Assembly: GCA_050115495.1 (NCBI GenBank)
Contig: JASFQK010000009.1
Coordinates: 32,001 to 96,000, forward strand
Source of the DNA: Phycisphaerae bacterium
GTDB taxonomy: Bacteria; Planctomycetota; Phycisphaerae; UBA1845; Fen-1342
Direction: 5' to 3'
Length of the DNA stretch: 64,000 bases
Below the pieces are notes generated by a model. It did no database searches and was not told the origin of the DNA. It saw only the letters and a list, made by a program, of their open reading frames with translations. The position numbers and the translations under genes are program-made. Within the stretch, counting starts at the first letter, position 1. Each line of letters starts with the position of its first letter. Shown here in pieces: positions 30,958 to 47,625 of the stretch.

Positions 30958-31521
30958 ATGGCCAAAGCGAGCGAACTGAAAAAGGGCAAGGTCATCCAGT
31001 ATCAGGACGGCCTCTACTCGATCTTCGACATTACGCGGGTCTCGAAGGGCAACTGGCGCAGCTACCTCCAGGCCAAGCTCAAGTCGCTGACGACCGGGCA
31101 GATCCTCGACGTCCGCTTCTCGGTCGACGACAAGGTCGAGACCCCCTTCGTCGACACCAAGCCGTACGAGTACCTCTACCGCGACGGCGAGGACTACGTG
31201 ATCATGGACCAGCAGAACTACGACCAAGTCACGATTCCGGCGGACGTCATGGGCGACGCCCATCTGTACCTGAAGGGCAACGAGCTCGTGACATGTTCGT
31301 TCGTCGACGGGAAAATCGTGAGCGTCGAGCTGCCGAACGTGGTGGAGCTAAGCGTGACCGATACACCGCCGGTGGCCCGCGGGGCCACGGCAACGAACCA
31401 GAGCAAGGATGCCACGCTGGAGACGGGGTTGCGCGTGCGCGTGCCGCCGTTCATCGAGAACGGCGAGCTGATTCGCGTCGACACCCGCACGGGTGAGTAT
31501 CTGGAGAGGGCCAAGGGGTGA
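30958..31521 (+). CDS. efp: Translation elongation factor P
   Basis: [27 protein letters not shown]...[28 protein letters not shown]. Confidence 0.95.
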
Positions 31522-31567
31522 GCAACACCGAACGCTCCGCGGCCCGCCGTGCGGAGGCTATGCCCCG

Positions 31568-35554
<3,987 letters not shown>

Positions 35555-35569
35555 GGGGGGAAGAGAAGA

Positions 35570-35611
35570 AGGCAACCAGGCAACCAGGCAACGAGGCAGA
35601 AGATTGCCTCG
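35570..35611 (+). repeat. Short tandem 8-mer repeat (AGGCAACC x3-4) with small hairpin
   Basis: aggcaacc-aggcaacc-aggcaacg-aggcagaa followed by gattgcctcg. Confidence 0.6.
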
Positions 35612-35757
35612 CGGGCACGTATTCCGTTCGGGGATCTGACGGGGCAACGAGAGATAGGTAGGCGTGGGCGGGGATGCGCGCATAATGTGCTTGGATCGGG
35701 CGCGTTTTTCCGGTGCGTAGACGGTGCCGGCTGTTCTGCACGTCCAGAGAGGAAGCC

Positions 35758-37068
35758 ATGCCTGCTCACTCCGCTCGAACGATCGCGCGTCGTCGTTGGC
35801 GCAGACTGTCGGCTGCCCTGCTCGTCGGGGCCGCCCTGCTGCCGTGCTGGGTCGGCTGCGACCGAAAGCCCGCCGACGGAGAGGTTCGTGTGGTGCGGCT
35901 GTGGGCGCATCAGGGGCAGGAGAAGGAGAACGCGGCGATGCGGGCCATCGCCGACGCGTTCAATGCGGAGCATGCTGCGCAGAAACTGCGCGTGGAGATC
36001 ACGTTCTATCCGGACCGGCAGTATGCGGACAAGGTGTCCATCGCCGCCTTCTCGAAGACGCTGCCCGACGTGCTGGACGTCGACGGCCCGTACGTGGGCC
36101 CCTGGGCCGCGGAGGGCATTCTCCAGCCGCTGGACGAGCTGATCGACGAGACGCTGCGGGCGGACCTGCTGTCCTCGCTGATCGAGCAGGGCACATATGC
36201 GGACCACCTGTACGCCGTCGGGGCGTTCGATTCGGCGTTGGTCGTCTACTACAACGCGGACGTGATCGAGCGGGCCGGCCTACACCCGCCCGAGCACGTC
36301 GCGGAGGCGTGGACCTGGGACGAGTTCGTGCAGGCGCTGGAGCAGGTGAAGCCGCTGGCGACCGTTCCGCTGTCGCTGCATATGGACGACGCCAGCAGCG
36401 AGTGGTTCACGTATGCGTTCTCGCCGCTGCTGTGGTCCAACGGCGGGCAACTCATCGATGATGGGCGGGCCGTCGGTGTGCTGGACAGTCCGGCCAACAT
36501 CGCGGCGCTGACGCGGTGGCAGCAGCTCTTCCGCGACGGTCTCGCCGAGCCGACGTCGACGAATCCGGACCCGTTCTCCGCCGGCCTGGCGGCGTTTGAC
36601 TGGACGGGGCATTGGATGCTACCGAGGTTCGAGCAGAAAGAGGGGCTGCGGTTCGGCGTTATGCCGCTGCCGAAGATGGGCGAGCGATTCGTCGCCGCCT
36701 CGGGGAGCTGGTGCTGGGGGATCTCGCGGGATTGCGGCGATCGGGCGGCGGCGTGGCAGGTGATCTCGTGGCTGCTCGATCCGGAGCACGGCATCAAACC
36801 AATCGTGCAGGCCAACGGGGCCGTGCCGGGACGGCGGAGTGCGTTCGCGCTCTTCCCCGAGTACGAGGAGCTGCCGCGGCAGCTTTTCCGCGAGCAGCTT
36901 GAGCAAGCGGCTCGCGCTCGGCCGCGGACGCCAGCGTATCTGACGCTCACGAGCGAGTTCGCCGCCGCTTTGCGAGACGTGGCCCGTGGGACGGATGTGG
37001 CCCGGCGGCTGAAGGAGGCCGCGGAGAACGTGCAGCGTACGCTGGACCGCCGGGGCGGTGACGGATAG
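35758..37068 (+). CDS. Sugar ABC transporter substrate-binding lipoprotein
   Basis: Lipobox-like WVGC; LPDVL.VDGP, VYYN, AWTWDEF and GVMPLP motifs. Confidence 0.88.
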   Translation: MPAHSARTIARRRWRRLSAALLVGAALLPCWVGCDRKPADGEVRVVRLWAHQGQEKENAAMRAIADAFNAEHAAQKLRVEITFYPDRQYADKVSIAAFSKTLPDVLDVDGPYVGPWAAEGILQPLDELIDETLRADLLSSLIEQGTYADHLYAVGAFDSALVVYYNADVIERAGLHPPEHVAEAWTWDEFVQALEQVKPLATVPLSLHMDDASSEWFTYAFSPLLWSNGGQLIDDGRAVGVLDSPANIAALTRWQQLFRDGLAEPTSTNPDPFSAGLAAFDWTGHWMLPRFEQKEGLRFGVMPLPKMGERFVAASGSWCWGISRDCGDRAAAWQVISWLLDPEHGIKPIVQANGAVPGRRSAFALFPEYEELPRQLFREQLEQAARARPRTPAYLTLTSEFAAALRDVARGTDVARRLKEAAENVQRTLDRRGGDG

Positions 37069-37972
37069 ACCGCAACCCATGGCCGCGATGCCCCGCGAGA
37101 GACTGGTCGCCTGTCTGTTCGTCGCGCCGGCGACGGCGGTGCTCGGCGTGTTCGTCGCGTGGCCGGCGCTGTACATGGCCTGGGCCAGTCTGCACGAAGG
37201 GGCGTGGTCGCAGACGACGGGCCAGACGTTCGCGGGTCTGGCCAGCTACCGGGCCCTGCTCACCGACCGAGCCTTCGGTCAGGCCGCGGCCAACACGGCG
37301 TGGTTCACCGTGCTGGTCGTGCCGCTGCAAACGGCTCTAGCGCTCGCCTTCGCCGTCTGGACGAACCGCCCGGGCAAGGCCGTGCGATTCCTGCGGATGG
37401 CGGTCTTCGTGCCGACAACGCTCTCGCTGGCGGTGCTGAGCGTGGTCTGGAGCCTGCTGTACGCACCGGCGACGGCGACGGGGGCCGGGCTGTTCAACGG
37501 CTTGCTCAGCGGCGTCGGGCTACCAGTTCAACCGTTTCTGGCGAGCCCACGCCAGGCTCTGCTCGCGATCGTGGCGATGAGCGTCTGGCAGGGCGTCGGG
37601 CTGCAAATGATGGTGTTCCTCTCCGGGCTCCAGCAGATCCCGGAGCAGCTCTACGAGGCCGCTCGTCTTGACGGTGCCGGCCGCTGGCAGCAACTCCGCC
37701 ATATCACGCTGCCGGCCCTCGCTCCGACGACGCTGTTCGTCGTCATGATCACGACGATTTTTGCGTTGAAGCTGTTCGTGCAGCCGCTGCTCATGACCGG
37801 CGGCGGGCCGGAAGGCGCCACGCGCAGCGTCGTCCAATACGTCTACGAGGCGGCCTTTCACAGTCGTGACCTGAGTCTGGCTTGTGCGGCGGGTGTGGTG
37901 TTTCTCGTCGCCGTGCTGGTGATCGCGGCTGGGCAGCGCTATGCCGGCCGCCGGGCGGAGGACTGGCAATGA
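37058..37972 (+). CDS. Carbohydrate ABC transporter permease
   Basis: EAA loop LQQIPEQLYEAARLDGAGRWQQLRHITLP. Confidence 0.92.
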   Translation: MTDRPQPMAAMPRERLVACLFVAPATAVLGVFVAWPALYMAWASLHEGAWSQTTGQTFAGLASYRALLTDRAFGQAAANTAWFTVLVVPLQTALALAFAVWTNRPGKAVRFLRMAVFVPTTLSLAVLSVVWSLLYAPATATGAGLFNGLLSGVGLPVQPFLASPRQALLAIVAMSVWQGVGLQMMVFLSGLQQIPEQLYEAARLDGAGRWQQLRHITLPALAPTTLFVVMITTIFALKLFVQPLLMTGGGPEGATRSVVQYVYEAAFHSRDLSLACAAGVVFLVAVLVIAAGQRYAGRRAEDWQ

Positions 37973-38832
37973 GCCGCGGCAGGCGGATGGCGATTCGCTG
38001 GGCGGCGGCGCTCGTCGCCGTGGTCGTGGCCGTCCTGTATCTGACGCCGATCCTGTGGACCGCGGCCGCGTCGCTCAAGCCGGACGAGTTCATCCACCGT
38101 GACGTGGACTCACTGCGCAGCCTCGTGCCCGGCCCGACGACGCCGGACAACTACGCGGCGGCGGAGCGGCGGGGACAGGTGAGCGTCACGCTGGTCAACA
38201 CGTTCATCGTCGTGGTGGTCATCGCCGCCGGCGGACTGCTGATTAACGCCCCGGCGGCGTACGCGTTCGCCCGGATGCGTTTCCCGGGGCGGGACGCGCT
38301 GTTCCTGGCGTTCGTGGGGACGATCATCGTACCGCTGGAGGCGATCGTCATCCCGCTGTTCGTGACCGTGCAGGGTAGCCGCGGGTTGGAGAGCGTTCTG
38401 GGCGAGCGAACGTGGACGCTGGTCGCGCTGAGCGTCCCGTTTCTGGCCAAGGCGTTCAACGTGTTCCTGCTGCGGCAGGCCTTTCTTTCGTTGCCGCGAG
38501 CGCTCGAAGAGGCCGCGTTCATCGACGGGGCCGGCTGGTGGCGGGCGTTCTGGCGGGTCGGGCTGCCCAACGTGCGGCCGGCGCTGGTTACCGTCGTGCT
38601 GCTCGACTTCGTCATTCACTGGAACGACTTCCTCTGGCCGTTGGTCATCTGCCAGGATGAGAGCACGCGCACCGTGCAGATCGGCCTCGGCGCGTTCTTC
38701 ACCCAGCCGCCGGTGTCGTGGGGGGCGATCCTGGCGTACGCGGTGCTGATTACGCTGCCGGTGCTGCTCGTGTTTGCGGTGGGCCAGCGGTGGATCGTGC
38801 GTTCGCTGGCGGCGACGGGCGTGCGGGAATAG
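37969..38832 (+). CDS. Carbohydrate ABC transporter permease
   Basis: AAYAFARMRFPGR, LEEAAFIDGAG and WNDFLWPL motifs. Confidence 0.92.
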   Translation: MSRGRRMAIRWAAALVAVVVAVLYLTPILWTAAASLKPDEFIHRDVDSLRSLVPGPTTPDNYAAAERRGQVSVTLVNTFIVVVVIAAGGLLINAPAAYAFARMRFPGRDALFLAFVGTIIVPLEAIVIPLFVTVQGSRGLESVLGERTWTLVALSVPFLAKAFNVFLLRQAFLSLPRALEEAAFIDGAGWWRAFWRVGLPNVRPALVTVVLLDFVIHWNDFLWPLVICQDESTRTVQIGLGAFFTQPPVSWGAILAYAVLITLPVLLVFAVGQRWIVRSLAATGVRE

Positions 38833-39114
38833 TCGCCGTCATGCTCTGCAGCGTGCAGCGTCGCCCGCGGTAACCGCCTGTGGGTACTTGCGACTGTCGC
38901 TCAACCCGGCCAGAGCCAAACCGTCCTCTTGGCGCCGGTGGCCATCACGGTCGCCAGATGTCCAGAGTCTCTTGCTCCTTCTTCAGCGCATACTCAGAGC
39001 CGCCGCTGACACGGCCACGTCCCTGCCAGCTCCGGTAGTCCATAACTCGCCGCTGTCACTGCGCAGACCCCGTGCCGCTGGGCACGTCCAAGCATCTTGC
39101 GTGAGCCACGCGCT

Positions 39115-40449
39115 TCACGACGTCAGCGTGTCCATCCAGCGCTGGAGATGGGCCACACCCTCAAGGCCCGCCACGTCCACGAAACTCGTGATCCCATTGC
39201 CCAAGTCCGCAACCAGCTGCTCTTTCGACGCGGTGGCTGCGAACTGGTACTCAACGCGCTTGCGCTGCAGGTAGTGCCGCAAGCAGCGCATCTTTGCCTC
39301 GGTCGTCGGGAAGTCTATGCGTACGATGCCATGTCGGCGCCGGACGCTCTTGACCGTGCTATCGCCAAACAGAGCGAAGTTGTTCGCATCATTCGCCAGG
39401 ACCTGCTTGCAAACCTCACAAGCGCACACATTCTCATGAAACACAGCTGCGCTCTGAAGGTACCCTGCCGCTCTGAACATGGGCGCCGCGTCCTTGAATC
39501 GCACGCGTGCGTGCAACGGCGGGACGTAGTAGCGGGCAATCGGGATACCACCTCCTACTGGCACCGCCGGCCGAAACTCGCCGAACTCCGGAGCATGCGT
39601 CACGCCGGACAGGGCGCTCTTGCCAAGTACGCCGGCAGCCAGAATCGAGAAGTATCCGCCGTGGAGGTTGACCACCTCCCGGCGCCCTGCCTTTCGAAGC
39701 CGGCGAGCGAACCGCAGAAGGCCGGCGAGTTCAGGCTTGCTGGCTGTCTGTTCGTCGAGATTGTCCGCCCAGAGCAAGTAGCCGTCCGGGCTAGCCCTGC
39801 TCAGACCATCCGTGATGGAGTCTTGGATAGACTCGTCTAACAAGACGCCCTGGCTCACGAGAACAGCCGCAAACAGCTTCGAATCACCGCCCGGCGGGAC
39901 CAGCTCGCGCGCCCGTTCCGCCGCTGCAACACAGACTGGCAACCAATCAACGCAAGTAGTCTCTGTCAGGTAGAAATACGGAGCGACAATCGCATATGGA
40001 GGGAGATCGACCTCGTGGTCATCCAGGTACTTCGCCGTATCCGCGTTTCTCATGTAGCTACGAAGACTCTCACGCTGGAATGCCACACACCGGTCAGTGA
40101 ATCCATCCAAGACACGAGCGGCCTTCAGGTGCTTAGGCAAGAGCCTGCGTGCACCGACCAGCGTGTCTATGGGGCGTCCGTACACCTCCGCCAAGCCCCT
40201 GATGGAGGCCCTCGGCTCCCCTTCGGCGTTGCAGATGGCCTCCGGATCGTGCTGAAAGGCATGCGTCAGAGGATCGATGACATAGACAGCCTGTGCGGTC
40301 TTCTCCAACAAGAAAGCCGCCAGCCCAGCCGGCGCATGTTGTACCATGTTGGCGTTAATGACCACGCCGCGGTACGTTCCCTTCTCTGGATACTCGAAAT
40401 GCCGCTGCTCCGCAAATGTACTGAACATCATCCAATGGTCAATCGACAT
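39115..40449 (-). CDS. Hypothetical protein, TGT/beta-family-like TIM barrel with CxCxxC...H putative Zn site
   Basis: IDP.TH near N-terminus, alternating beta/alpha pattern, RYYVP.LH and CACEVC...HYL near C-terminus; the fold is inferred. Confidence 0.6.
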   Translation of the reverse strand: MSIDHWMMFSTFAEQRHFEYPEKGTYRGVVINANMVQHAPAGLAAFLLEKTAQAVYVIDPLTHAFQHDPEAICNAEGEPRASIRGLAEVYGRPIDTLVGARRLLPKHLKAARVLDGFTDRCVAFQRESLRSYMRNADTAKYLDDHEVDLPPYAIVAPYFYLTETTCVDWLPVCVAAAERARELVPPGGDSKLFAAVLVSQGVLLDESIQDSITDGLSRASPDGYLLWADNLDEQTASKPELAGLLRFARRLRKAGRREVVNLHGGYFSILAAGVLGKSALSGVTHAPEFGEFRPAVPVGGGIPIARYYVPPLHARVRFKDAAPMFRAAGYLQSAAVFHENVCACEVCKQVLANDANNFALFGDSTVKSVRRRHGIVRIDFPTTEAKMRCLRHYLQRKRVEYQFAATASKEQLVADLGNGITSFVDVAGLEGVAHLQRWMDTLTS

Positions 40450-40873
40450 ACGAGATCGCCCTCATTGCGGCGGCCATGCGTCGCCGTTGCGGCGGCCAGA
40501 CCTTGAGATTCCGGCTCGGCTCAACCACCCATTCGCAGTCCCACGAAGTCGGGTCACACTGGATGAGCCCGTAGCCTTCTCCCCGCACTTGTTTCAGCAG
40601 GGCATCGGGCACCGAACGTAACGAGATTGCGATGCAGATGTAGTCGGCCACAACCTGATGTGCTCGGCACTGCTCAATCGCCCGTCGCCAATCGTGTCGC
40701 TTTGCCTCGACGAACGTCACCCATCGATTGCGAGTCGCCACAACATCCGCACTCTGTCCGAGATTCGGGACTTCAAGGCGGACGCGGTATCCCTGGTTTC
40801 TCAAGAAGCCGACCAGGCTGCCGACCACGTCTGCCTCCGTGGCCCTTACGGTCTGACTAGGTAATCTCCTCAT
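40439..40873 (-). CDS. Small PD-(D/E)xK-like nuclease
   Basis: E...EV...ADVVA...VEAK..WRRAIEQ; ATG 40873 overlaps the upstream gene end. Confidence 0.65.
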   Translation of the reverse strand: MRRLPSQTVRATEADVVGSLVGFLRNQGYRVRLEVPNLGQSADVVATRNRWVTFVEAKRHDWRRAIEQCRAHQVVADYICIAISLRSVPDALLKQVRGEGYGLIQCDPTSWDCEWVVEPSRNLKVWPPQRRRMAAAMRAISYVD

Positions 40874-41351
40874 AGGTCTCCAGCCTGCATGAGGCCCAGT
40901 AAAGAAGAACAACAAGGCCAGTCTGGGCCGACAGAAGAATGATCCCCGCGGGCAGGGCCCATGGTCGAGCGTCAATCCACAACCATGACGCCAATGCGCC
41001 GCCGGCTCCGAGAATGATCGTCCCGAGTAGAGCCGTGTACGCAGAACGCACAACGAGCCGCAAGGTCTCCAGCCTGTGGAAGATCGCGAACAACCGAAAG
41101 GTCTCATCGGTTAGGTTGCCGACGAGGTCCGGCTCCTCCCGGCCATCGCCGCGCACCAAGTCCCCGTCGGGAAGCTGACGCACGTGCTGAAGGAGTGCCG
41201 CGTGCTTGACTGCCAATTGCTCAAGCAGGGCTTGCCGCCGTAGCTTGACCCTTGACCGGAAGCTGGCCTGCGATTCAATGAACGGCTTGAAGTACGTGGC
41301 GAGCGCCCCGACTATAATCGGGACTATGGAGGCGACCAATGATGGCCACAT
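40857..41351 (-). CDS. Hypothetical 3-TM membrane protein
   Basis: One N-terminal and two C-terminal hydrophobic helices; ATG 41351 lies 5 nt after the upstream stop. Confidence 0.6.
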   Translation of the reverse strand: MWPSLVASIVPIIVGALATYFKPFIESQASFRSRVKLRRQALLEQLAVKHAALLQHVRQLPDGDLVRGDGREEPDLVGNLTDETFRLFAIFHRLETLRLVVRSAYTALLGTIILGAGGALASWLWIDARPWALPAGIILLSAQTGLVVLLYWASCRLETYEEIT

Positions 41352-41355
41352 CGGA

Positions 41356-41952
41356 TCAGGTTGTGCCCCTGCGCCCAAGGACCTGCCCCTTGATTTTCGA
41401 CCTGGTGGTCTGGTCTTCGTAGTTCTCGTAGACGTATTTCAGCAAGGCACGAAGCGGAATCCTCTGAAGACGGCTCTTGAATTCGCGCATGAGACCTTTC
41501 TGCTCGACGGTCAGCAGGCCGTATAGGTCCGCAGCGAACGCCGCTCCCTTTGGCGAGAGGCGAAAGACTTGTTCGTCGTACTCGGAGACGGACGACTCGG
41601 CGGTATCCGCCCGCGACATCGCCAGCCAGCGCTCCCATTCCGCCGCACACTCGGGCAAGGTGTCTTCCTGAGAATCTTCTCGCTCGATGAACCCGTGCAA
41701 CTCGAAGAACGTCAGATCGTCATAGACGTCGCGAGAAAAGGGGCCGAAATCCCAAGCGAAGAATTGGTAGAAATTCTCACTGTCTATCCTGATGTTGGCA
41801 CGGAAGCGAACTAGAGCCTCTTCTCGGAAGAGAAACAGCATCTTCATAAGCCGGGTGCGGCCCGTGATTGGCTCATTGGTCTGCTCGGAGCGTCCCGGCG
41901 AATACAGCAGAAGGAGCAAGATATCCCGTCGATTGTCGATGCGGCGCGCCAC
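41356..41952 (-). CDS. YwgA/Panacea(DUF4065)-like winged-helix protein
   Basis: GRTRLMKMLFL...YQFFAWDFGPFSRDVYDDL...GFI...FRLSPKG; GTG start after GGAGG. Confidence 0.6.
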   Translation of the reverse strand: MARRIDNRRDILLLLLYSPGRSEQTNEPITGRTRLMKMLFLFREEALVRFRANIRIDSENFYQFFAWDFGPFSRDVYDDLTFFELHGFIEREDSQEDTLPECAAEWERWLAMSRADTAESSVSEYDEQVFRLSPKGAAFAADLYGLLTVEQKGLMREFKSRLQRIPLRALLKYVYENYEDQTTRSKIKGQVLGRRGTT

Positions 41953-42584
41953 GACGTGCCAACCTCCATACTGCGCGAGCCAACAACACCGGCACCAACG
42001 CGGGGGCTTCGGCGCTACACACAGCCTGCGCACCGCGCGGGGGCAACTTGGCCGACCGTCGACTGCGAATAGTACCGCGGGACTGGCACCAAGTCCAAGG
42101 CGTCTTCCGCAGGGCCTTGACGGCCTGTGAAAGAACGCTCGACCCGGACGCGGCCCCAAACCGACTCTCGGCGTGTCAGAACCAGTCCCCGCGAAGGAGG
42201 CTCGCGGCCTCACTTGAACGATCTGGAGCGGCGCGCGTGGGACCGTGTTGGCACACGGCCTTGCCCACAGACAAGCCACGGGCTGAATCGCACACCGTGG
42301 CTGGGTAGCCCCAGGCGGCCTTCCGCGTGGCCCGTGCCTGGAGGTCCGGCATGGGTCGATGCCGGCATTCGCGCTGTCGGCCGGCCCGGTAGTCTGGCGC
42401 AGCGTCGCCCGGGCATATGCTCAGAGACAGCGGCGCGTCAGGACGATCCTGGCGCCGCACTGCGTGGACCGCAGGCCATACACAGAGACGGGCGGCCAGC
42501 GTGATGCTGACCGCCCGCGAGTTCTAAGACAACAAGCGCCGGCCGCCGGGCTTCAGTGCCGGGCGGGCGGAGGTCGCCGGCCGA

Positions 42585-43511
42585 TCAGCAGCCGCGCCGG
42601 CGAGAGAACGCCAGGGCCAGGCCACTCACGACGAGCAGCATGGTGCCCGGCTCGGGAACGGAGCAGGACAAGGCAATCTGGTCGTTGCCGCAACTGGCGG
42701 CGGTGTGCAACGCGATGTCGAAGGTGGCATCGGTGGAGAGCTGGCTGAGGTCGATGGACCAGGTCTCGAGGTACCAGGTGCGGTTACTGTCGATGATCGT
42801 GGCGTAGGTCAGGCCGGCGTCTCCCAGGTCGTCGCCGCCCTCGGCGAAGGCCCGCATGTCCAGGCCTACGGGGGCATTGCTCGCGGTGTAGGCGCCCTGG
42901 CCACCGGTGAGGGTGACATCGCCGTCGCCGAGCAGGGCCACGAGGTGACCTTCGAGGCTGGTGTCGCCCGTGCCGCCGAAGAGGTGGAACTCCTGGGCGT
43001 CGGCGAAGTGGCCGCCGTTCAGGGAGATCGGGTCGCCTTCGCTGTTGCGGGCCCAGGTGTTGAGCAAGGCGAAGTGGCTGATGCCGTCACTGTCGGAGAC
43101 GGTGACGAAGAGGTCGCCCTCACCGTACCAGGCGCCCCAGCCGTTGTGGTAGTAGCCGGCGTGGGGATCGAGGGCGGTGGCCAACTGGAGAACGAGCGCA
43201 CCGTCGACGACCTGGGCGCCGAGGACGCCCTGGTCAAACGCCAGGCCGGTCGAACCGCCGGGGCTGGGCACCTGGCCGACGCCGCTGGGGTAGGAAACGC
43301 GGTCAGGTCCGAGTTCGGGGAAGTAGTTGCTGATGGTCGGGCCGGAGAGGGGATGGCCCTGAGCCGTGTCGTTGTAGTAAGAAGACTTGAGTCCGGAAAC
43401 GCCGATTTCCCAGGTGGCGTCGAAGCCGGAGAAGGCGTTGACCAGGTCCGCCTGCACGAGGCAGGTGCCGAGGGTAGCGACAACGAGAACGCTCAGAAGG
43501 TTGATACGCAC
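42585..43511 (-). CDS. PEP-CTERM sorting domain protein
   Basis: Signal peptide; C-terminal VPEPGT + TM + RRR. Confidence 0.88.
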   Translation of the reverse strand: MRINLLSVLVVATLGTCLVQADLVNAFSGFDATWEIGVSGLKSSYYNDTAQGHPLSGPTISNYFPELGPDRVSYPSGVGQVPSPGGSTGLAFDQGVLGAQVVDGALVLQLATALDPHAGYYHNGWGAWYGEGDLFVTVSDSDGISHFALLNTWARNSEGDPISLNGGHFADAQEFHLFGGTGDTSLEGHLVALLGDGDVTLTGGQGAYTASNAPVGLDMRAFAEGGDDLGDAGLTYATIIDSNRTWYLETWSIDLSQLSTDATFDIALHTAASCGNDQIALSCSVPEPGTMLLVVSGLALAFSRRRGC

Positions 43512-43842
43512 ACCAAGCTCCTTTCCCTATCCTGCGGCGATGTCTCGGCGAATCCCAGACACCAGCCGAAGGGTGGGTCGAGCCTGGCTGGCTGATGGCC
43601 TAGTGCCCAAACGATAGGCTCGACGCCGGCGGCATTTCCACCGCCCCCCGCAGAAAAAGTGGCAATCAATCGGCGGAAAGTCGCGGCATAAACGACAGCA
43701 AAACGAGCGTTCTCATAACAGCAGGGTTTGCGCCGGCGCGCGCGGGGATGCGGAAGGCGACGGCGGACATGCGCGGGTGGAAAGGCTGTTACGCGGACGG
43801 TTCGAAATTCTGCGTCATTGGGCGACGGTGAGTGGTTTCCGG

Positions 43843-44670
43843 TCAGCCGCGCTCCAGCACCACCGATGTGACGATGAATGCGTCGCAGATCGCGTGCACC
43901 GCCACCGCCGGCCAGACGCTACGGGTCCGGTAAGTCAGCACGCCCATCACCCAGCCGAACGTGAAGGTGAGTCCGACGCCGACCCAGCCGTTGGGAAACC
44001 CGCTGCGATAGTGCATGGTCCCGAACAGGGCCGCCTGAAAGAAGATGGCCGGCCAGACGCCGGCGACGCGTCGCGCCTCGCTCTGGAGGACAACGCGGGC
44101 CAGGAACTCCTCGAAGAGGGCGTTCGTTATCGCCACCGCTGGCACAGCCGCCAGCAGCGCGGCCGTCGACCACGGCGGCAGCATCCGGGCGAGGGCGAGT
44201 GGCCGTTCGGCAATGAAGAAGTGCCACCAGGCGAGCCCGGCGATGCTGAGCAGAGCGAAGGGAATGGTCAGCGCCCAGGCTCGGCGCGTCGTCGGCCAGC
44301 GCAGCGAGAGCTCGGTACACGAACGACCGCGCAGGAAGCGGTCGAAGGCGATCAGGGCAACGGCAATGAGCAGTTCCGGAAACGGTGTGGGCAGGTACCA
44401 GTACACACCGAAGTACTGCACCGCCAGCCGAAGCGCCCGGTAGAGCAGGACGATGTCGACCAGCTCCACGAGCGGTACCGGGAGACGTACGTAACGTACG
44501 AGGACGCTCGCCGCCGCCAGGAGCATGAACATCTGGAGTGCCCGGCCGGCGATGATATCACCGGTGGCGATCAGGGCAGTCAGGGCAATGAGCCCGATGA
44601 CGCCGACCACGGTGGAGGCTGGCCGGCGGTGCCGATTCGCCGGATTGCCCTGCGGGGCTGGTGGTGCCAT
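43843..44670 (-). CDS. CPBP (CAAX/Abi) family intramembrane metalloprotease
   Basis: EEFLAR, FGTMH and AVHAICD motifs; start 44670 or 44706. Confidence 0.85.
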   Translation of the reverse strand: MAPPAPQGNPANRHRRPASTVVGVIGLIALTALIATGDIIAGRALQMFMLLAAASVLVRYVRLPVPLVELVDIVLLYRALRLAVQYFGVYWYLPTPFPELLIAVALIAFDRFLRGRSCTELSLRWPTTRRAWALTIPFALLSIAGLAWWHFFIAERPLALARMLPPWSTAALLAAVPAVAITNALFEEFLARVVLQSEARRVAGVWPAIFFQAALFGTMHYRSGFPNGWVGVGLTFTFGWVMGVLTYRTRSVWPAVAVHAICDAFIVTSVVLERG

Positions 44671-44722
44671 CACGTCCTTCGTTCGCGGCCGCTCAGCGAC
44701 GGGCACACCGCCGCCGGCGGCT

Positions 44723-45091
44723 CTATCGCTTTGGGAGCAGCGATTTGAGCCATTCGGCCACGGTGACTTCCTTCATGTCGCGGAATTCGCCGGCGTCGAA
44801 GAACCAGCCGTAGCAGACCGTGCAGCTTTCGAAGTGAATGTGAGGCTGCCGGTGGACCGCCATCTGGATCATCGGCTCCTGGCAGACGGGGCAGAGGCGC
44901 GGGCCTTTGACCTCCCGTGCGGCAGATGCCACGGTCGGTCCCTGATCAATGGCCTCGGAGCCGGGGATCTTCCGGAGCTTCTCGGCTTCGAGGGCGTCGA
45001 ACCAGAGCCCGCCACACGCCGGGCAGCGGTCGACCTCGATGCTGGCGTACGTCACCTTCTCCATCGCGGTGCTGCATTTCGGGCAATTCAC
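44723..45091 (-). CDS. zf-TFIIB double zinc-ribbon protein
   Basis: CPKC...VDRCPACGGLWFD.LE and CPVC...CTVCYGWFFDAGE. Confidence 0.85.
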   Translation of the reverse strand: MNCPKCSTAMEKVTYASIEVDRCPACGGLWFDALEAEKLRKIPGSEAIDQGPTVASAAREVKGPRLCPVCQEPMIQMAVHRQPHIHFESCTVCYGWFFDAGEFRDMKEVTVAEWLKSLLPKR

Positions 45092-45129
45092 GGGCGACCT
45101 CCAGAACAGCTTTCATGGTCGAACATTCG

Positions 45130-47535
45130 TTACTCGTCGGTGTCGGCCGGGGCGGTCGAGGGCATCCGATCCTCGCAGACTTCGATGGCGCGGTCGAGCA
45201 GCTCGTCGCGGCCGGCGCGGACGCCGGCGAGCGTGCGGTGTGCGGGGACGGTCGGCTGGATGCCGACGCCATGGTGCGTCGAATCGTCGTGCTTGAGAAC
45301 GCGCATGCCGGTCCACGTGACCCGGTACCCGCCGGGCAGGTTGAAGGGGTTGACGTTGCCGTTCGTGCCGGCGGTCGGCTCACCGACGATCTCCGCGAGC
45401 CGGTAATGCTCGACGATGCCCATGCACGTCTCGGCGTAACTGATCGCCCGGCCATCGGTGATGAAGACAACGTTCTTCGGCAAGCGCGGTTTGGCGGGCT
45501 TCACTGGCCAGCCGGACCTGCGCCACGACCACTGCTGGCGGTCGGGGCGGGTCACGATCGGAACACACCAATTCGCGGACTGGATGGTCTCGTCGGTGAG
45601 ATGGCCGAGGACAGTCGGCGGCAGGCGACGGGGATAACCGCGCAGGTCGAAGATGATGCCGCGCGCCTGGGCCAGGTCGGGCAGGGCCGCCTGAAATTCG
45701 TCGTTGTCGACGCGGTCCATGTCGACGTACCACAGGCCGGGCTGGATCTCGGCGATCTTGTCCGGCCGCGTGCTGTGCTCGGCCAACCAGAACCCCCGGC
45801 CGGCGAAGACGAGTCGAACGGTGCGCAGTGGCTCGTCGCCGCGCTGGATGCCCAGTTCGCACTCCTGCCCATACGCCCCCCGCGACGACTCCTCACGAAT
45901 GCGCCAGCGCAGCCACTGCGGCGTGGCGGCCGAAATCAACGACTCGTGAGCGGCGATGACCTCAGCGGCGGGCCGGCCGTCAATCGTGGTGACGATGTCA
46001 CCGGGCTTGAGGTCCTGGCCCGCCGCCACTTCGGGATCGGCGGCAAGGATGACCAGTTGGTTCTCGACAATGTCCCAGGAAAGCGGCAGCCAACCCACGC
46101 TCTCCAGCATGCGACCGCTCACACGCCCATGTCCGTCGTGCAGGGCCGCGACGAGCCGCCGTAGCGTGCCGAGGAAGGCTCGTTCGTCCGGATCGGTGGC
46201 GGCGGACTTCAAGGCCGTGCGCAGCACGGCGGGCCAATCGGTCTCGACGACGTCGAAGTAGGGATAGAAGTGCTGGAAGACGTTCCAGGCCAGGATAACG
46301 TCGGCCAGGCGGACGGCCCGGTCGTTCGCCGACTGGCGACGATGCACGCCCGGAGCTTCCTCGATCGTAGCGGGCGCGGCGGCGGTGGCGCCATCGGCGG
46401 GCCCCGTGGCGGACGCGTGCGGAACCGTGCCGCCGACGCTCTTGTACACGGCCATGGGCACGATGCAGGTAACATCGCCGGGCAGATCGACGACGAGCGG
46501 TTCGTCCGGCTCGGGCAGCTCCGGGGTGTCATCCCGGCCGAAGAGCCTTCCGAAGACGTTGCTCACGCGGTGGACGCTGACGCGTTCGCTGTGGTAGACC
46601 CCGCCGGGCCGGTCCACGCCGAGCCCGCAGCCCTCGTGCCGCCAGGCGATGGCGCGGTATCCGTCGGTGTCGGGCGGCTCGGCGACGGCGGGCGGCAACT
46701 CATAGGGCTGTCCGGTGGGGACCATCTGCACGGTCGGGGCCACGTCGTGCACGACCTCGGTCAGCGCGGCGGCCAGTGCTCCCGGCGAATCGGCGGGTTC
46801 GACCGTGCGCACGGCGTCGATGGCGATGCTCGGCCAGTCGGCCGCGGCGGCCTCGTCGCTCGGGTGGAAGTAACGAACGTAGCCGAGCAGGCGCGCCAGG
46901 GCGACGAGGTTGTCGAGGCCGCGGTCGGACAGCGCTCGCGGCTCGCCGTGTACGGCCGCGCACTCCACGACGGCCAGGGCCAGGTCGTCCACCCATACCG
47001 TTCCGCCGCCGCTCAGCGAAGCCCCGAAGAGCAAGCGCTCGGCTTCCGCCGGGACTTCGAGCGTGATCTCGCACTTCGTCCAGGGGGTAGTGTGCTGGAG
47101 GCCGTACGACAACATGTTGTCGTAGATGAGCGGCCGCTCGGTATCCGCGCCGTCGATGCGGAGGAACAGGCCGGCGTAGCCGTCGTCCACGCCGTCCAGC
47201 CGCAGCCAACCAGTCAGCCGGATGCATTTGCCGCGAAAGTCGACGGCGGGCAGGATCTGCCGCAGCCGGCCGTATTCTCGGAGGTCGGCCGGCACCCCCT
47301 GCCGGCTCAGGCGGGCGCTGCGCTGGCCGCTGTGTTTGACGTCGGCATCGGCGACGACGCTGTACGCTGGGCTGACGGGGACGCCCAGTAGCGCTTCCGG
47401 CTCGTTCCACCCCGGCAGGGCCTCCCCTTCGCCCGTCTCGAATCCGCCATTTCGCACGCCCTGGCCACAGGCTGCGCCAGCCAGCAGCAGGACGAGCCAC
47501 ATCCCCCAACCCTGCCCGCGCAAAGTCCGACCCAT
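45130..47535 (-). CDS. S41 family peptidase with N-terminal carbohydrate-binding-like domain and PDZ-like domain
   Basis: NGGFE...SG..S..L CBM-like region, YVRYFHPSD, FQHFYPYF, LHDGH, IFDLRGYP, AISYAE and GEPTAGTNG. Confidence 0.85.
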   Translation of the reverse strand: MGRTLRGQGWGMWLVLLLAGAACGQGVRNGGFETGEGEALPGWNEPEALLGVPVSPAYSVVADADVKHSGQRSARLSRQGVPADLREYGRLRQILPAVDFRGKCIRLTGWLRLDGVDDGYAGLFLRIDGADTERPLIYDNMLSYGLQHTTPWTKCEITLEVPAEAERLLFGASLSGGGTVWVDDLALAVVECAAVHGEPRALSDRGLDNLVALARLLGYVRYFHPSDEAAAADWPSIAIDAVRTVEPADSPGALAAALTEVVHDVAPTVQMVPTGQPYELPPAVAEPPDTDGYRAIAWRHEGCGLGVDRPGGVYHSERVSVHRVSNVFGRLFGRDDTPELPEPDEPLVVDLPGDVTCIVPMAVYKSVGGTVPHASATGPADGATAAAPATIEEAPGVHRRQSANDRAVRLADVILAWNVFQHFYPYFDVVETDWPAVLRTALKSAATDPDERAFLGTLRRLVAALHDGHGRVSGRMLESVGWLPLSWDIVENQLVILAADPEVAAGQDLKPGDIVTTIDGRPAAEVIAAHESLISAATPQWLRWRIREESSRGAYGQECELGIQRGDEPLRTVRLVFAGRGFWLAEHSTRPDKIAEIQPGLWYVDMDRVDNDEFQAALPDLAQARGIIFDLRGYPRRLPPTVLGHLTDETIQSANWCVPIVTRPDRQQWSWRRSGWPVKPAKPRLPKNVVFITDGRAISYAETCMGIVEHYRLAEIVGEPTAGTNGNVNPFNLPGGYRVTWTGMRVLKHDDSTHHGVGIQPTVPAHRTLAGVRAGRDELLDRAIEVCEDRMPSTAPADTDE

Positions 47536-47625
47536 CGCCGTACCCTCCTTCGGCAATAACAGGGCGCACAACATCGCGCCGGTCATGCGGCTCGCGTTCC
47601 CGGCGACACGCCGGGCGCGAGGCCG

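Follow-up and report, generated by a model that had tools for sequence, protein, structure and literature searches.

We analysed a 64,000-nucleotide (nt) stretch of DNA (hereafter the window) from a Phycisphaerae bacterium (GCA_050115495.1, contig JASFQK010000009.1, positions 32,001–96,000, forward strand). At window positions 39115..41952 it carries a compact cassette of four genes, g1 to g4, whose products are listed here with their predicted character (aa, amino acids; TM, transmembrane; TGT, tRNA-guanine transglycosylase):

41952–41356, minus strand: g1, 198 aa, GTG start with GGAGG 10 nt upstream; winged-helix protein resembling Panacea and the DarG C-terminus, with residues ~90–129 forming a conserved acidic insert

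41351–40857, minus strand: g2, 164 aa; membrane protein with one TM segment, a soluble helical part and a TM hairpin

40873–40439, minus strand: g3, 144 aa; minimal PD-(D/E)xK nuclease-fold protein, distant kin of sce7726 and P4 cII

40449–39115, minus strand: g4, 444 aa; TGT-superfamily TIM barrel with a zinc site

A preliminary description, made from the letters of the DNA before any database search, had proposed a foreign-looking operon of abutting or overlapping open reading frames (ORFs) between an ABC transporter and a PEP-CTERM gene. The coordinates of all four ORFs were borne out: g1 and g2 are separated by 4 nt, g2 and g3 overlap by 17 nt, and g3 and g4 overlap by 11 nt. The transporter gene encodes a sugar-type binding protein, and the PEP-CTERM gene is present as described. 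The foreign composition is likewise evident. GC content at third codon positions is 0.68–0.73 in the cassette genes versus 0.83–0.92 in eight flanking genes, and the overall GC content is 0.598 versus a genome mean of 0.668 (sd 0.022), a value as low being reached by 16 of 2063 equal-sized windows of the genome. Each gene is present in one copy in its own genome. Scans of g1 to g4 against Pfam, PADLOC and NCBIfam were nearly blank, and the motifs that the preliminary description had picked out in g1, g3 and g4 proved to be conserved across homologues.

The same gene set recurs in distant bacteria. Among 8000 scored candidates, 350 were relatives of g4, and a profile scan of GTDB with g4 returned 36 loci in roughly ten phyla: Planctomycetota, Myxococcota, Pseudomonadota, Bdellovibrionota, Bacteroidota, Acidobacteriota, Sumerlaeota, Nitrospirae and Bacillota, together with one Fimbriimonadaceae genome. 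The expected co-occurrence of the genes was seen in 28 of these loci, which hold g1-g2-g3-g4 in order; five hold g1, g3 and g4 with a SIR2 gene, two are cut by contig ends and one is a g4 remnant. Family size and distant branches are under-sampled in this survey. Flanking ORFs differ and are mostly unrelated from locus to locus. Nor is the cassette vertically conserved: g4 was found in none of 24 genomes of the family (six of them from the same genus), in one of the 16 others from the order and, as a profile, in 5 of 301 genomes across the phylum, our own included, although not found does not equal absent here because the relatives are draft genomes. An empty site could not be constructed at base level, as just two of 40 relatives have a close orthologue of the permease beside the cassette; in those two, no cassette gene lies within 1.5 kb. 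Searches of viral sequences with g4 alone gave no match, and the profile matched four viral contigs; among plasmids there was one weak match (26%, E 8e-5). The cassette is thus real, widespread and mobile, with a patchy spread.

Several individual copies deserve description. On three of the viral contigs (L128–L130:5965–9858) g4-SIR2 is convergent with g1-g3, and the fourth (L131) carries the TM form. In one locus the cassette lies near a terminase gene (L034:11535–13634). Broken copies include one with IS66 inside g3 and g2 in two pieces (L014:4543–8011), one with g4 split over two frames (L035:2479–3844) and a lone C-terminal g4 remnant (L029:8070–8579).

The most informative variation concerns g2. 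In the five GTDB loci that lack it, a SIR2-family gene of 350–460 aa lies 3' of g4. To see how general this is, we took a census of 131 loci, with the GTDB loci, 80 metagenome loci and four viral contigs included; 123 of them retain g4, redundant copies and two own-genome loci among them. Six SIR2-only matches and two permease loci, all without g4, were dropped. The metagenome loci are the best 80 of 278, and since they were ranked against a SIR2-type query this sample is biased to the SIR2 type. Among the 123 loci, 52 carry the TM gene by hidden Markov model, 59 carry SIR2 and none carries both. In three further loci, and in two distant relatives, the place of g2 is taken by a divergent 3-TM gene. 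Of the nine loci then left among the 123, most are cut by contig or locus ends. The SIR2 gene starts between −100 and +18 nt from the g4 stop codon in 59 of 59 loci, and this adjacency persists in four rearranged loci (L031 and the three viral contigs) in which g1-g3 moved as a block. The SIR2 partners match the Pfam and PADLOC SIR2 models; the N[WY]D and HGS motifs, which mark cleavage of nicotinamide adenine dinucleotide (NAD), are present in 45 of 46 and 46 of 46 proteins, respectively. Thus, g1-g3-g4 is a fixed core, and the TM or SIR2 gene occupies an exchangeable effector slot. Trees of g4 (FastTree with 98 rows, IQ-TREE with 34 chosen rows) require three or more changes of the effector label. 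Six viral SIR2 matches were rejected as cassette members, having no cassette gene at all. At L165:6635–9168 lies a distant form of the cassette, made up of g1-g3-g4, in which g1 is extended at its N-terminus.

The membrane protein itself matched nothing in Pfam, PADLOC or NCBIfam, and an atlas search with g2 returned unnamed clusters only, under 0.9. Hydropathy places hydrophobic segments at residues 3–21, 108–126 and 132–150, in agreement with the 3-TM protein originally described; among 43 full-length homologues, 31 have three such segments, 11 have two and one has four. We consider g2 likely to be the effector, replaced by the SIR2 gene in the sister type.

The largest protein of the core, g4, had been likened to TGTs from its cysteine motif, and its structural model points the same way. 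The AF2 model (predicted local distance difference test, pLDDT, 89.6) has eight barrel strands and superimposes on ArcTGT (1iq8) with Z 21.7 and a root-mean-square deviation (rmsd) of 3.2 over 302 aligned residues. TGT (3unt, Z 20.6), QTRT2 (18.5) and DpdA (17.1; 7ui4) follow, the remaining barrels reach Z 14.4 at most, and the top rows of a Foldseek search are TGTs. The predicted fold is therefore that of the TGT superfamily, a TIM barrel closest to TGT and DpdA. C342, C344, C347 and H392 (CxCxxC...H) are invariant in 72 of 72 homologues and form a predicted zinc site. D59, at the end of strand 3 and kept in 71 of 72, resembles the acid/base Asp of TGT, an equivalence drawn from motif register and not from residue-level superposition. 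The likeness is one of fold: PF01702, the Pfam family of TGT and DpdA, matched 0 of 72 g4 homologues at E≤0.1, hhalign against host-type TGTs gave probabilities of 1.5–2.6%, a sequence search of the PDB gave nothing usable (best E 0.7), Pfam, PADLOC and NCBIfam gave zero matches, and BFVD gave zero at E≤0.001. No long fused form of g4 (827–2360 aa) was present among 8000 candidates, which is weak evidence.

The g4 pocket departs from that of TGTs at one position. We take the nucleophile Asp of TGTs to lie at the end of strand 8, and we placed the g4 register from motifs and secondary structure, not by superposition. Strand 8 of g4 (residues 282–285) ends in H285, invariant in 72 of 72 homologues, and within columns 281–287 an Asp occurs at 281 only, in 4 of 72, so that the nucleophile position appears to be His. 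E288 (68 of 72) or E291 (72 of 72) could substitute as nucleophile. The polar pocket residues N32, T62, Q66, D229, H285 and E291 are all invariant (72 of 72). According to the accessible text of PMC10164549, DpdA requires two aspartates as well as DpdB. Because strand 8 of g4 ends in H285 without a conserved Asp nearby and DpdA needs both aspartates, g4, although it belongs to the TGT superfamily by its fold, is probably no canonical guanine exchanger. The host genome encodes its own canonical TGT. In a same-order genome with the cassette on another contig, we observed a second, divergent PF01702 match (G027:C78:17070–18131; 296 bits).

Residues E13, D43, E56-x-K58 and Q68 of g3 do not vary among its homologues (72 of 72), and the first four of them give the full putative E...D...ExK catalytic set of PD-(D/E)xK nucleases. 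Weak matches were to YraN, Hjc and Vsr, and the protein is net positive in 27 of 29 homologues. The preliminary description had suggested kinship with the sce7725/sce7726 pair. That link is real but distant: the sce7726 model NF033832 was matched by four of 29 g3 homologues, with a best score of 33.9 bits against a cut-off of 70, a profile comparison aligned residues 9–91 only (probability 3.7%), and g3 lacks the C-terminal extension of that family. When g3 was modelled as a three-chain complex with g1 and g4, it scored 0.35 versus 0.00 for the best of three controls, with contacts agreeing in at least 89% and partner pLDDT of at least 81. Of 157 solved pairs, 116 reach the mark for a complex, and of 215 mismatched pairs, 2 do so; at scores of 0.60 or below, the pairs reaching it were 18 solved ones and both mismatches, so the g3 score is a weak pass. 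In one control g4 was replaced by an unrelated protein beside g3 and g1, and its score of 0.00 means 'no support' and is not evidence against g1–g3 binding.

The remaining core protein, g1, has invariant residues G31, T33, K37, G70 and P71. It scores 20.1 bits against Pfam SocA_Panacea (PF13274; cut-off 25.7), and 30 of 72 homologues match this model at E≤0.01 (best E 9.4e-5). Partial PADLOC matches were to PDC-M19A and Specificity_I; in agreement with the latter, a search for long g1-type fusions found two to type I restriction-modification (RM) specificity subunits (PF01420; P0125 and P0126). The AF2 model of g1 (pLDDT 89.9) had as its top fold match in both structure searches the M. tuberculosis DarTG complex 7yk3, at a modest score (Z 8.4, rmsd 4.6, 150 aligned residues; Foldseek E 5.8e-3). 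From its length of 187 residues, we take the matching chain for the C-terminal domain of DarG. In each of 28 homologues, the stretch 90–129 of g1 carries a net negative charge, from −7 to −19 with a median of −11.5. The DarG C-terminal domain, as the accessible part of PMC11481870 reports, blocks DarT through mimicry of single-stranded DNA. With PanAT (PF13274) and this domain, g1 shares a winged-helix-type fold, and with the DarG domain an acidic surface; it differs in falling below the Pfam cut-off and in belonging to a four-gene unit, not a pair, with no macrodomain match in g1 and no DarT match in the cassette in Pfam and PADLOC scans or in the g1 model. An antitoxin or sensor is the likely role of g1.

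The cassette had been put forward as a candidate undescribed system. In its logic it is of a kind already described. A bioRxiv preprint of October 2026 (10.64898/2026.10.19.760177) unifies the PF14350 family with deazaguanine transglycosylases and, in its accessible text, gives sirtuin, 2TM and restriction endonuclease (REase) proteins among the effectors of these 'TIM-B' systems and proposes constitutive negative regulation by the barrel. TIM-B includes PD-lambda-2 and the gop-beta-cII system of phage P4. The available parts of two reports state that gop-beta-cII protects against lambda and P1, Gop being toxic without beta (PMC9122126), and that it is triggered by a phage gene (10.1101/2023.04.06.535777). 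As in TIM-B, the cassette couples a TGT-related barrel to alternative effectors, here TM or SIR2 and never both, and has a kinase-fused relative. PF14350 proteins of the same phylum adjoin IrrE-type peptidases and sce7726 nucleases; they match PADLOC PD-Lambda-2_C and beta, three of their nuclease partners belong to the sce7726 family, and the one scanned matches P4 cII. The cassette matches this kind of system in logic, but sequence-level membership fails. PF14350 matched 0 of 72 g4 homologues, hhalign of g4 against five PF14350 members gave a probability of 0.15% (E 0.4), and the two profiles match different genomes. PADLOC gop, beta, cII and PD-Lambda-2 models gave no match to g1–g4 at E≤1, whereas true beta loci match. 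Further differences are that g4 keeps the full CxCxxC...H, which five aligned beta proteins lack; that g3 is shorter, without C-terminal extension and co-directional, whereas the TIM-B nuclease is convergent; that the regulator is the Panacea/DarG-C-like g1 and not an IrrE-type peptidase; and that g2 has three TM segments where TIM-B has 2TM effectors. A distant g4 relative with a kinase-like N-terminal part is followed by a 220-aa g3-like nuclease (L168:1399–3496; G189:C17), and two atlas clusters of 665 and 683 aa (78 and 85 members) share this kinase-barrel architecture.

The term 'undescribed' therefore stands with a qualifier. A literature search, with most subscription papers outside it, found no paper describing the four-gene unit, nor does it appear in the accessible parts of 10.1101/2025.04.06.647259, PMC12839542, PMC13434031, 10.64898/2025.12.03.692087 or PMC9503650. 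The preprint describes the same logic for PF14350; in its text PanA is paired only with another effector and the four-gene combination is missing, though its Figure 6B or supplements may include it. What is new here is that the TM gene is exchangeable with SIR2.

Considering that defence genes had been expected nearby, we examined the two nearest ORFs on each side in 34 GTDB loci. PADLOC matches at E≤1e-20 were found for 17 of 126 such neighbours; in the control, 120 ORFs taken from 20 arbitrarily chosen stretches of the host genome, there were 2. Setting aside two sigma-54 activators and one TraG-like match leaves 14 proteins in nine loci, comprising type I, II and III RM, Gabija, DUF499, AbiD and PDC candidates. 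In one locus (L015:2695–16034) the cassette and a Gabija pair lie between DUF499 and DUF1156 genes, that is, inside a BREX-related operon.

Three outcomes that the preliminary description had named as counter-evidence were looked for, namely genes that do not co-occur in other genomes, a g4 without the TGT/TIM-barrel fold and vertical conservation at the locus, and none of the three was seen. These results suggest that the cassette is quite likely to be an anti-phage defence system. How it would work is less certain, and the reading that we tentatively favour, with rather less than even confidence, is an abortive-infection, toxin-antitoxin-like system in which the g4 barrel holds the effector off. 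In the wiring that we infer, g4 would be a standing negative regulator, like beta for Gop in phage P4, and together with g3, which may bind it, would keep the toxic g2 or SIR2 effector off until infection breaks control. Restraint could act through direct binding or through a modification or product of the nucleobase-transfer type. Once released, g2 would depolarise the membrane, or SIR2 would deplete NAD, and the infected cell would stop. The g1 protein may add another brake or serve as a sensor, its acidic insert imitating nucleic acid like the DarG C-terminal domain; its loss or capture by a phage protein would release the system.

Several points weigh against this proposal. The neighbour control comes from a single genome, the nine positive loci include three that are closely related, and 25 of the 34 GTDB loci have no clear defence match in their nearest ORFs; our own copy sits between housekeeping-type genes, outside any defence island. 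The model also asks a single barrel family to hold back two effectors that are unrelated to each other. Only one effector swap is certain, because a tree with all SIR2 loci in one clade remains acceptable (p-AU 0.231), and beside the distant L165 cassette no effector was detected. Catalysis by g4 is uncertain because its nucleophile position appears to be His. Finally, because g4 lacks a sequence-level link to beta or PF14350, gop-beta can serve as a precedent only by analogy, by way of common ancestry. Restraint by g4 nevertheless leads the alternatives, which are an activating signal, a receptor, DNA modification and addiction.

Restraint could be reversed in sign. Upon infection, g1 would free g3, and g3 with g4 would produce a nucleotide or oligonucleotide, base-exchanged or abasic, to activate the TM or SIR2 protein, as in Thoeris or CBASS. 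Signalling systems usually join an unchanging set of enzymes to TM or SIR2 effectors, and the observed swap and the invariant polar pocket of g4 fit this pattern; the weak g3–g4 complex pass is compatible. However, the five SIR2 partners contain no SLOG, STING, macro or similar ligand-binding family, the soluble part of g2 comprises just ~80 helical residues with no recognisable ligand-binding domain, and in the P4 relative it is the absence of beta that makes Gop toxic (PMC9122126, accessible text). We regard this scheme as possible but doubtful. Somewhat less probable still is a further reading, in which g4 and g3 constitute a new kind of immune signal enzyme whose base-exchanged nucleotide, or nucleobase tag on a protein, controls a membrane pore or SIR2 NADase, with the DNA-mimicking winged-helix protein as a tripwire for phage. 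If this holds, signalling by nucleobase transfer would join CBASS, Thoeris and Pycsar as a class of its own, with a new His/Glu chemistry in the TGT pocket.

It is unlikely that g4 instead acts as a receptor without catalysis that recognises either a base modified by the phage (7-deazaguanine, for example) or a phage protein, gating the effector as Cap10 does with CdnD. Cap10 of type IV CBASS (9ntn) is likewise a TGT-fold protein recruited to anti-phage defence and, in the accessible text of 10.1101/2025.04.06.647259, is remodelled as a binder. The apparent replacement of the g4 nucleophile would suit such a role, as would the persistent adjacency of g4 and SIR2 after rearrangement. Yet neither a CD-NTase nor a QueC-like gene such as Cap9 is present in the cassette or its nearest ORFs, g2, g3 and SIR2 have no conserved N-terminal tail, Cap10 (Z 14.1) scores below true TGTs, and the retention of g1 and g3 would go unexplained.

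The preliminary description had pointed to DpdA as a TGT paralog that modifies DNA and had coupled base exchange or sensing to a nuclease. In a Dpd-like RM system, host DNA would be marked through base exchange by g4 and DNA lacking the mark would be cut by g3; the DpdA-like fold of g4, the intact active-site residues of g3 and the frequent RM neighbours speak for it, but canonical base exchange on DNA found no support, with the apparent His in place of one of the two aspartates that DpdA requires alongside DpdB, zero Dpd model matches in g1–g4 or the 126 nearest ORFs (E≤1e-20), no role for the obligate TM or SIR2 gene, and a g3 that seems too small for an obvious recognition domain, all of which make it improbable. 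Equally improbable is a selfish addiction or stress module without anti-phage role, which would account for the position of most loci among ordinary genes and for the broken copies (IS66 insertion L014, split g4 L035, remnant L029) but sits poorly with the enriched defence neighbours, a SIR2/TM effector pair typical of defence and an architectural relative in P4 that is a validated defence system (PMC9122126, accessible part).

Other features of the locus add little. Rfam gave zero matches in window 35000–46000. Promoter-like sites are at chance level (1 versus 0.8 by chance), and there are six terminator-like sites versus 2.8 ± 2.0. A 13-bp direct repeat at 38855/42399 spans the cassette and was rejected as an attachment site because it has 10 copies in the genome; a 13-bp inverted repeat lies at 38970/41909. 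One metatranscriptome (share 0.06) yielded two short contigs in g4 at a depth of ~2, which says nothing on transcription. Elsewhere in the window, 31493–35554 holds a 1353-aa gene that is presumably SecA-like, judging by its motifs, and long for a SecA, and 43843–47586 holds a CAAX protease, a 122-aa cysteine-rich ORF without an NCBIfam match and an 818-aa ORF with a weak match to tail-specific proteases.

Together, these data describe a compact, testable system that is recognised by none of the defence libraries used and is found in about ten phyla and on some phage contigs. How a TGT-like barrel can control a toxin has been an open question ever since beta proved to neutralise Gop, and the SIR2 version allows it to be addressed by a simple NAD read-out. 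With its zinc site retained and its pocket nearly complete, g4 stands between true TGTs on one side and beta proteins on the other, and may shed light on the chemistry of both groups.

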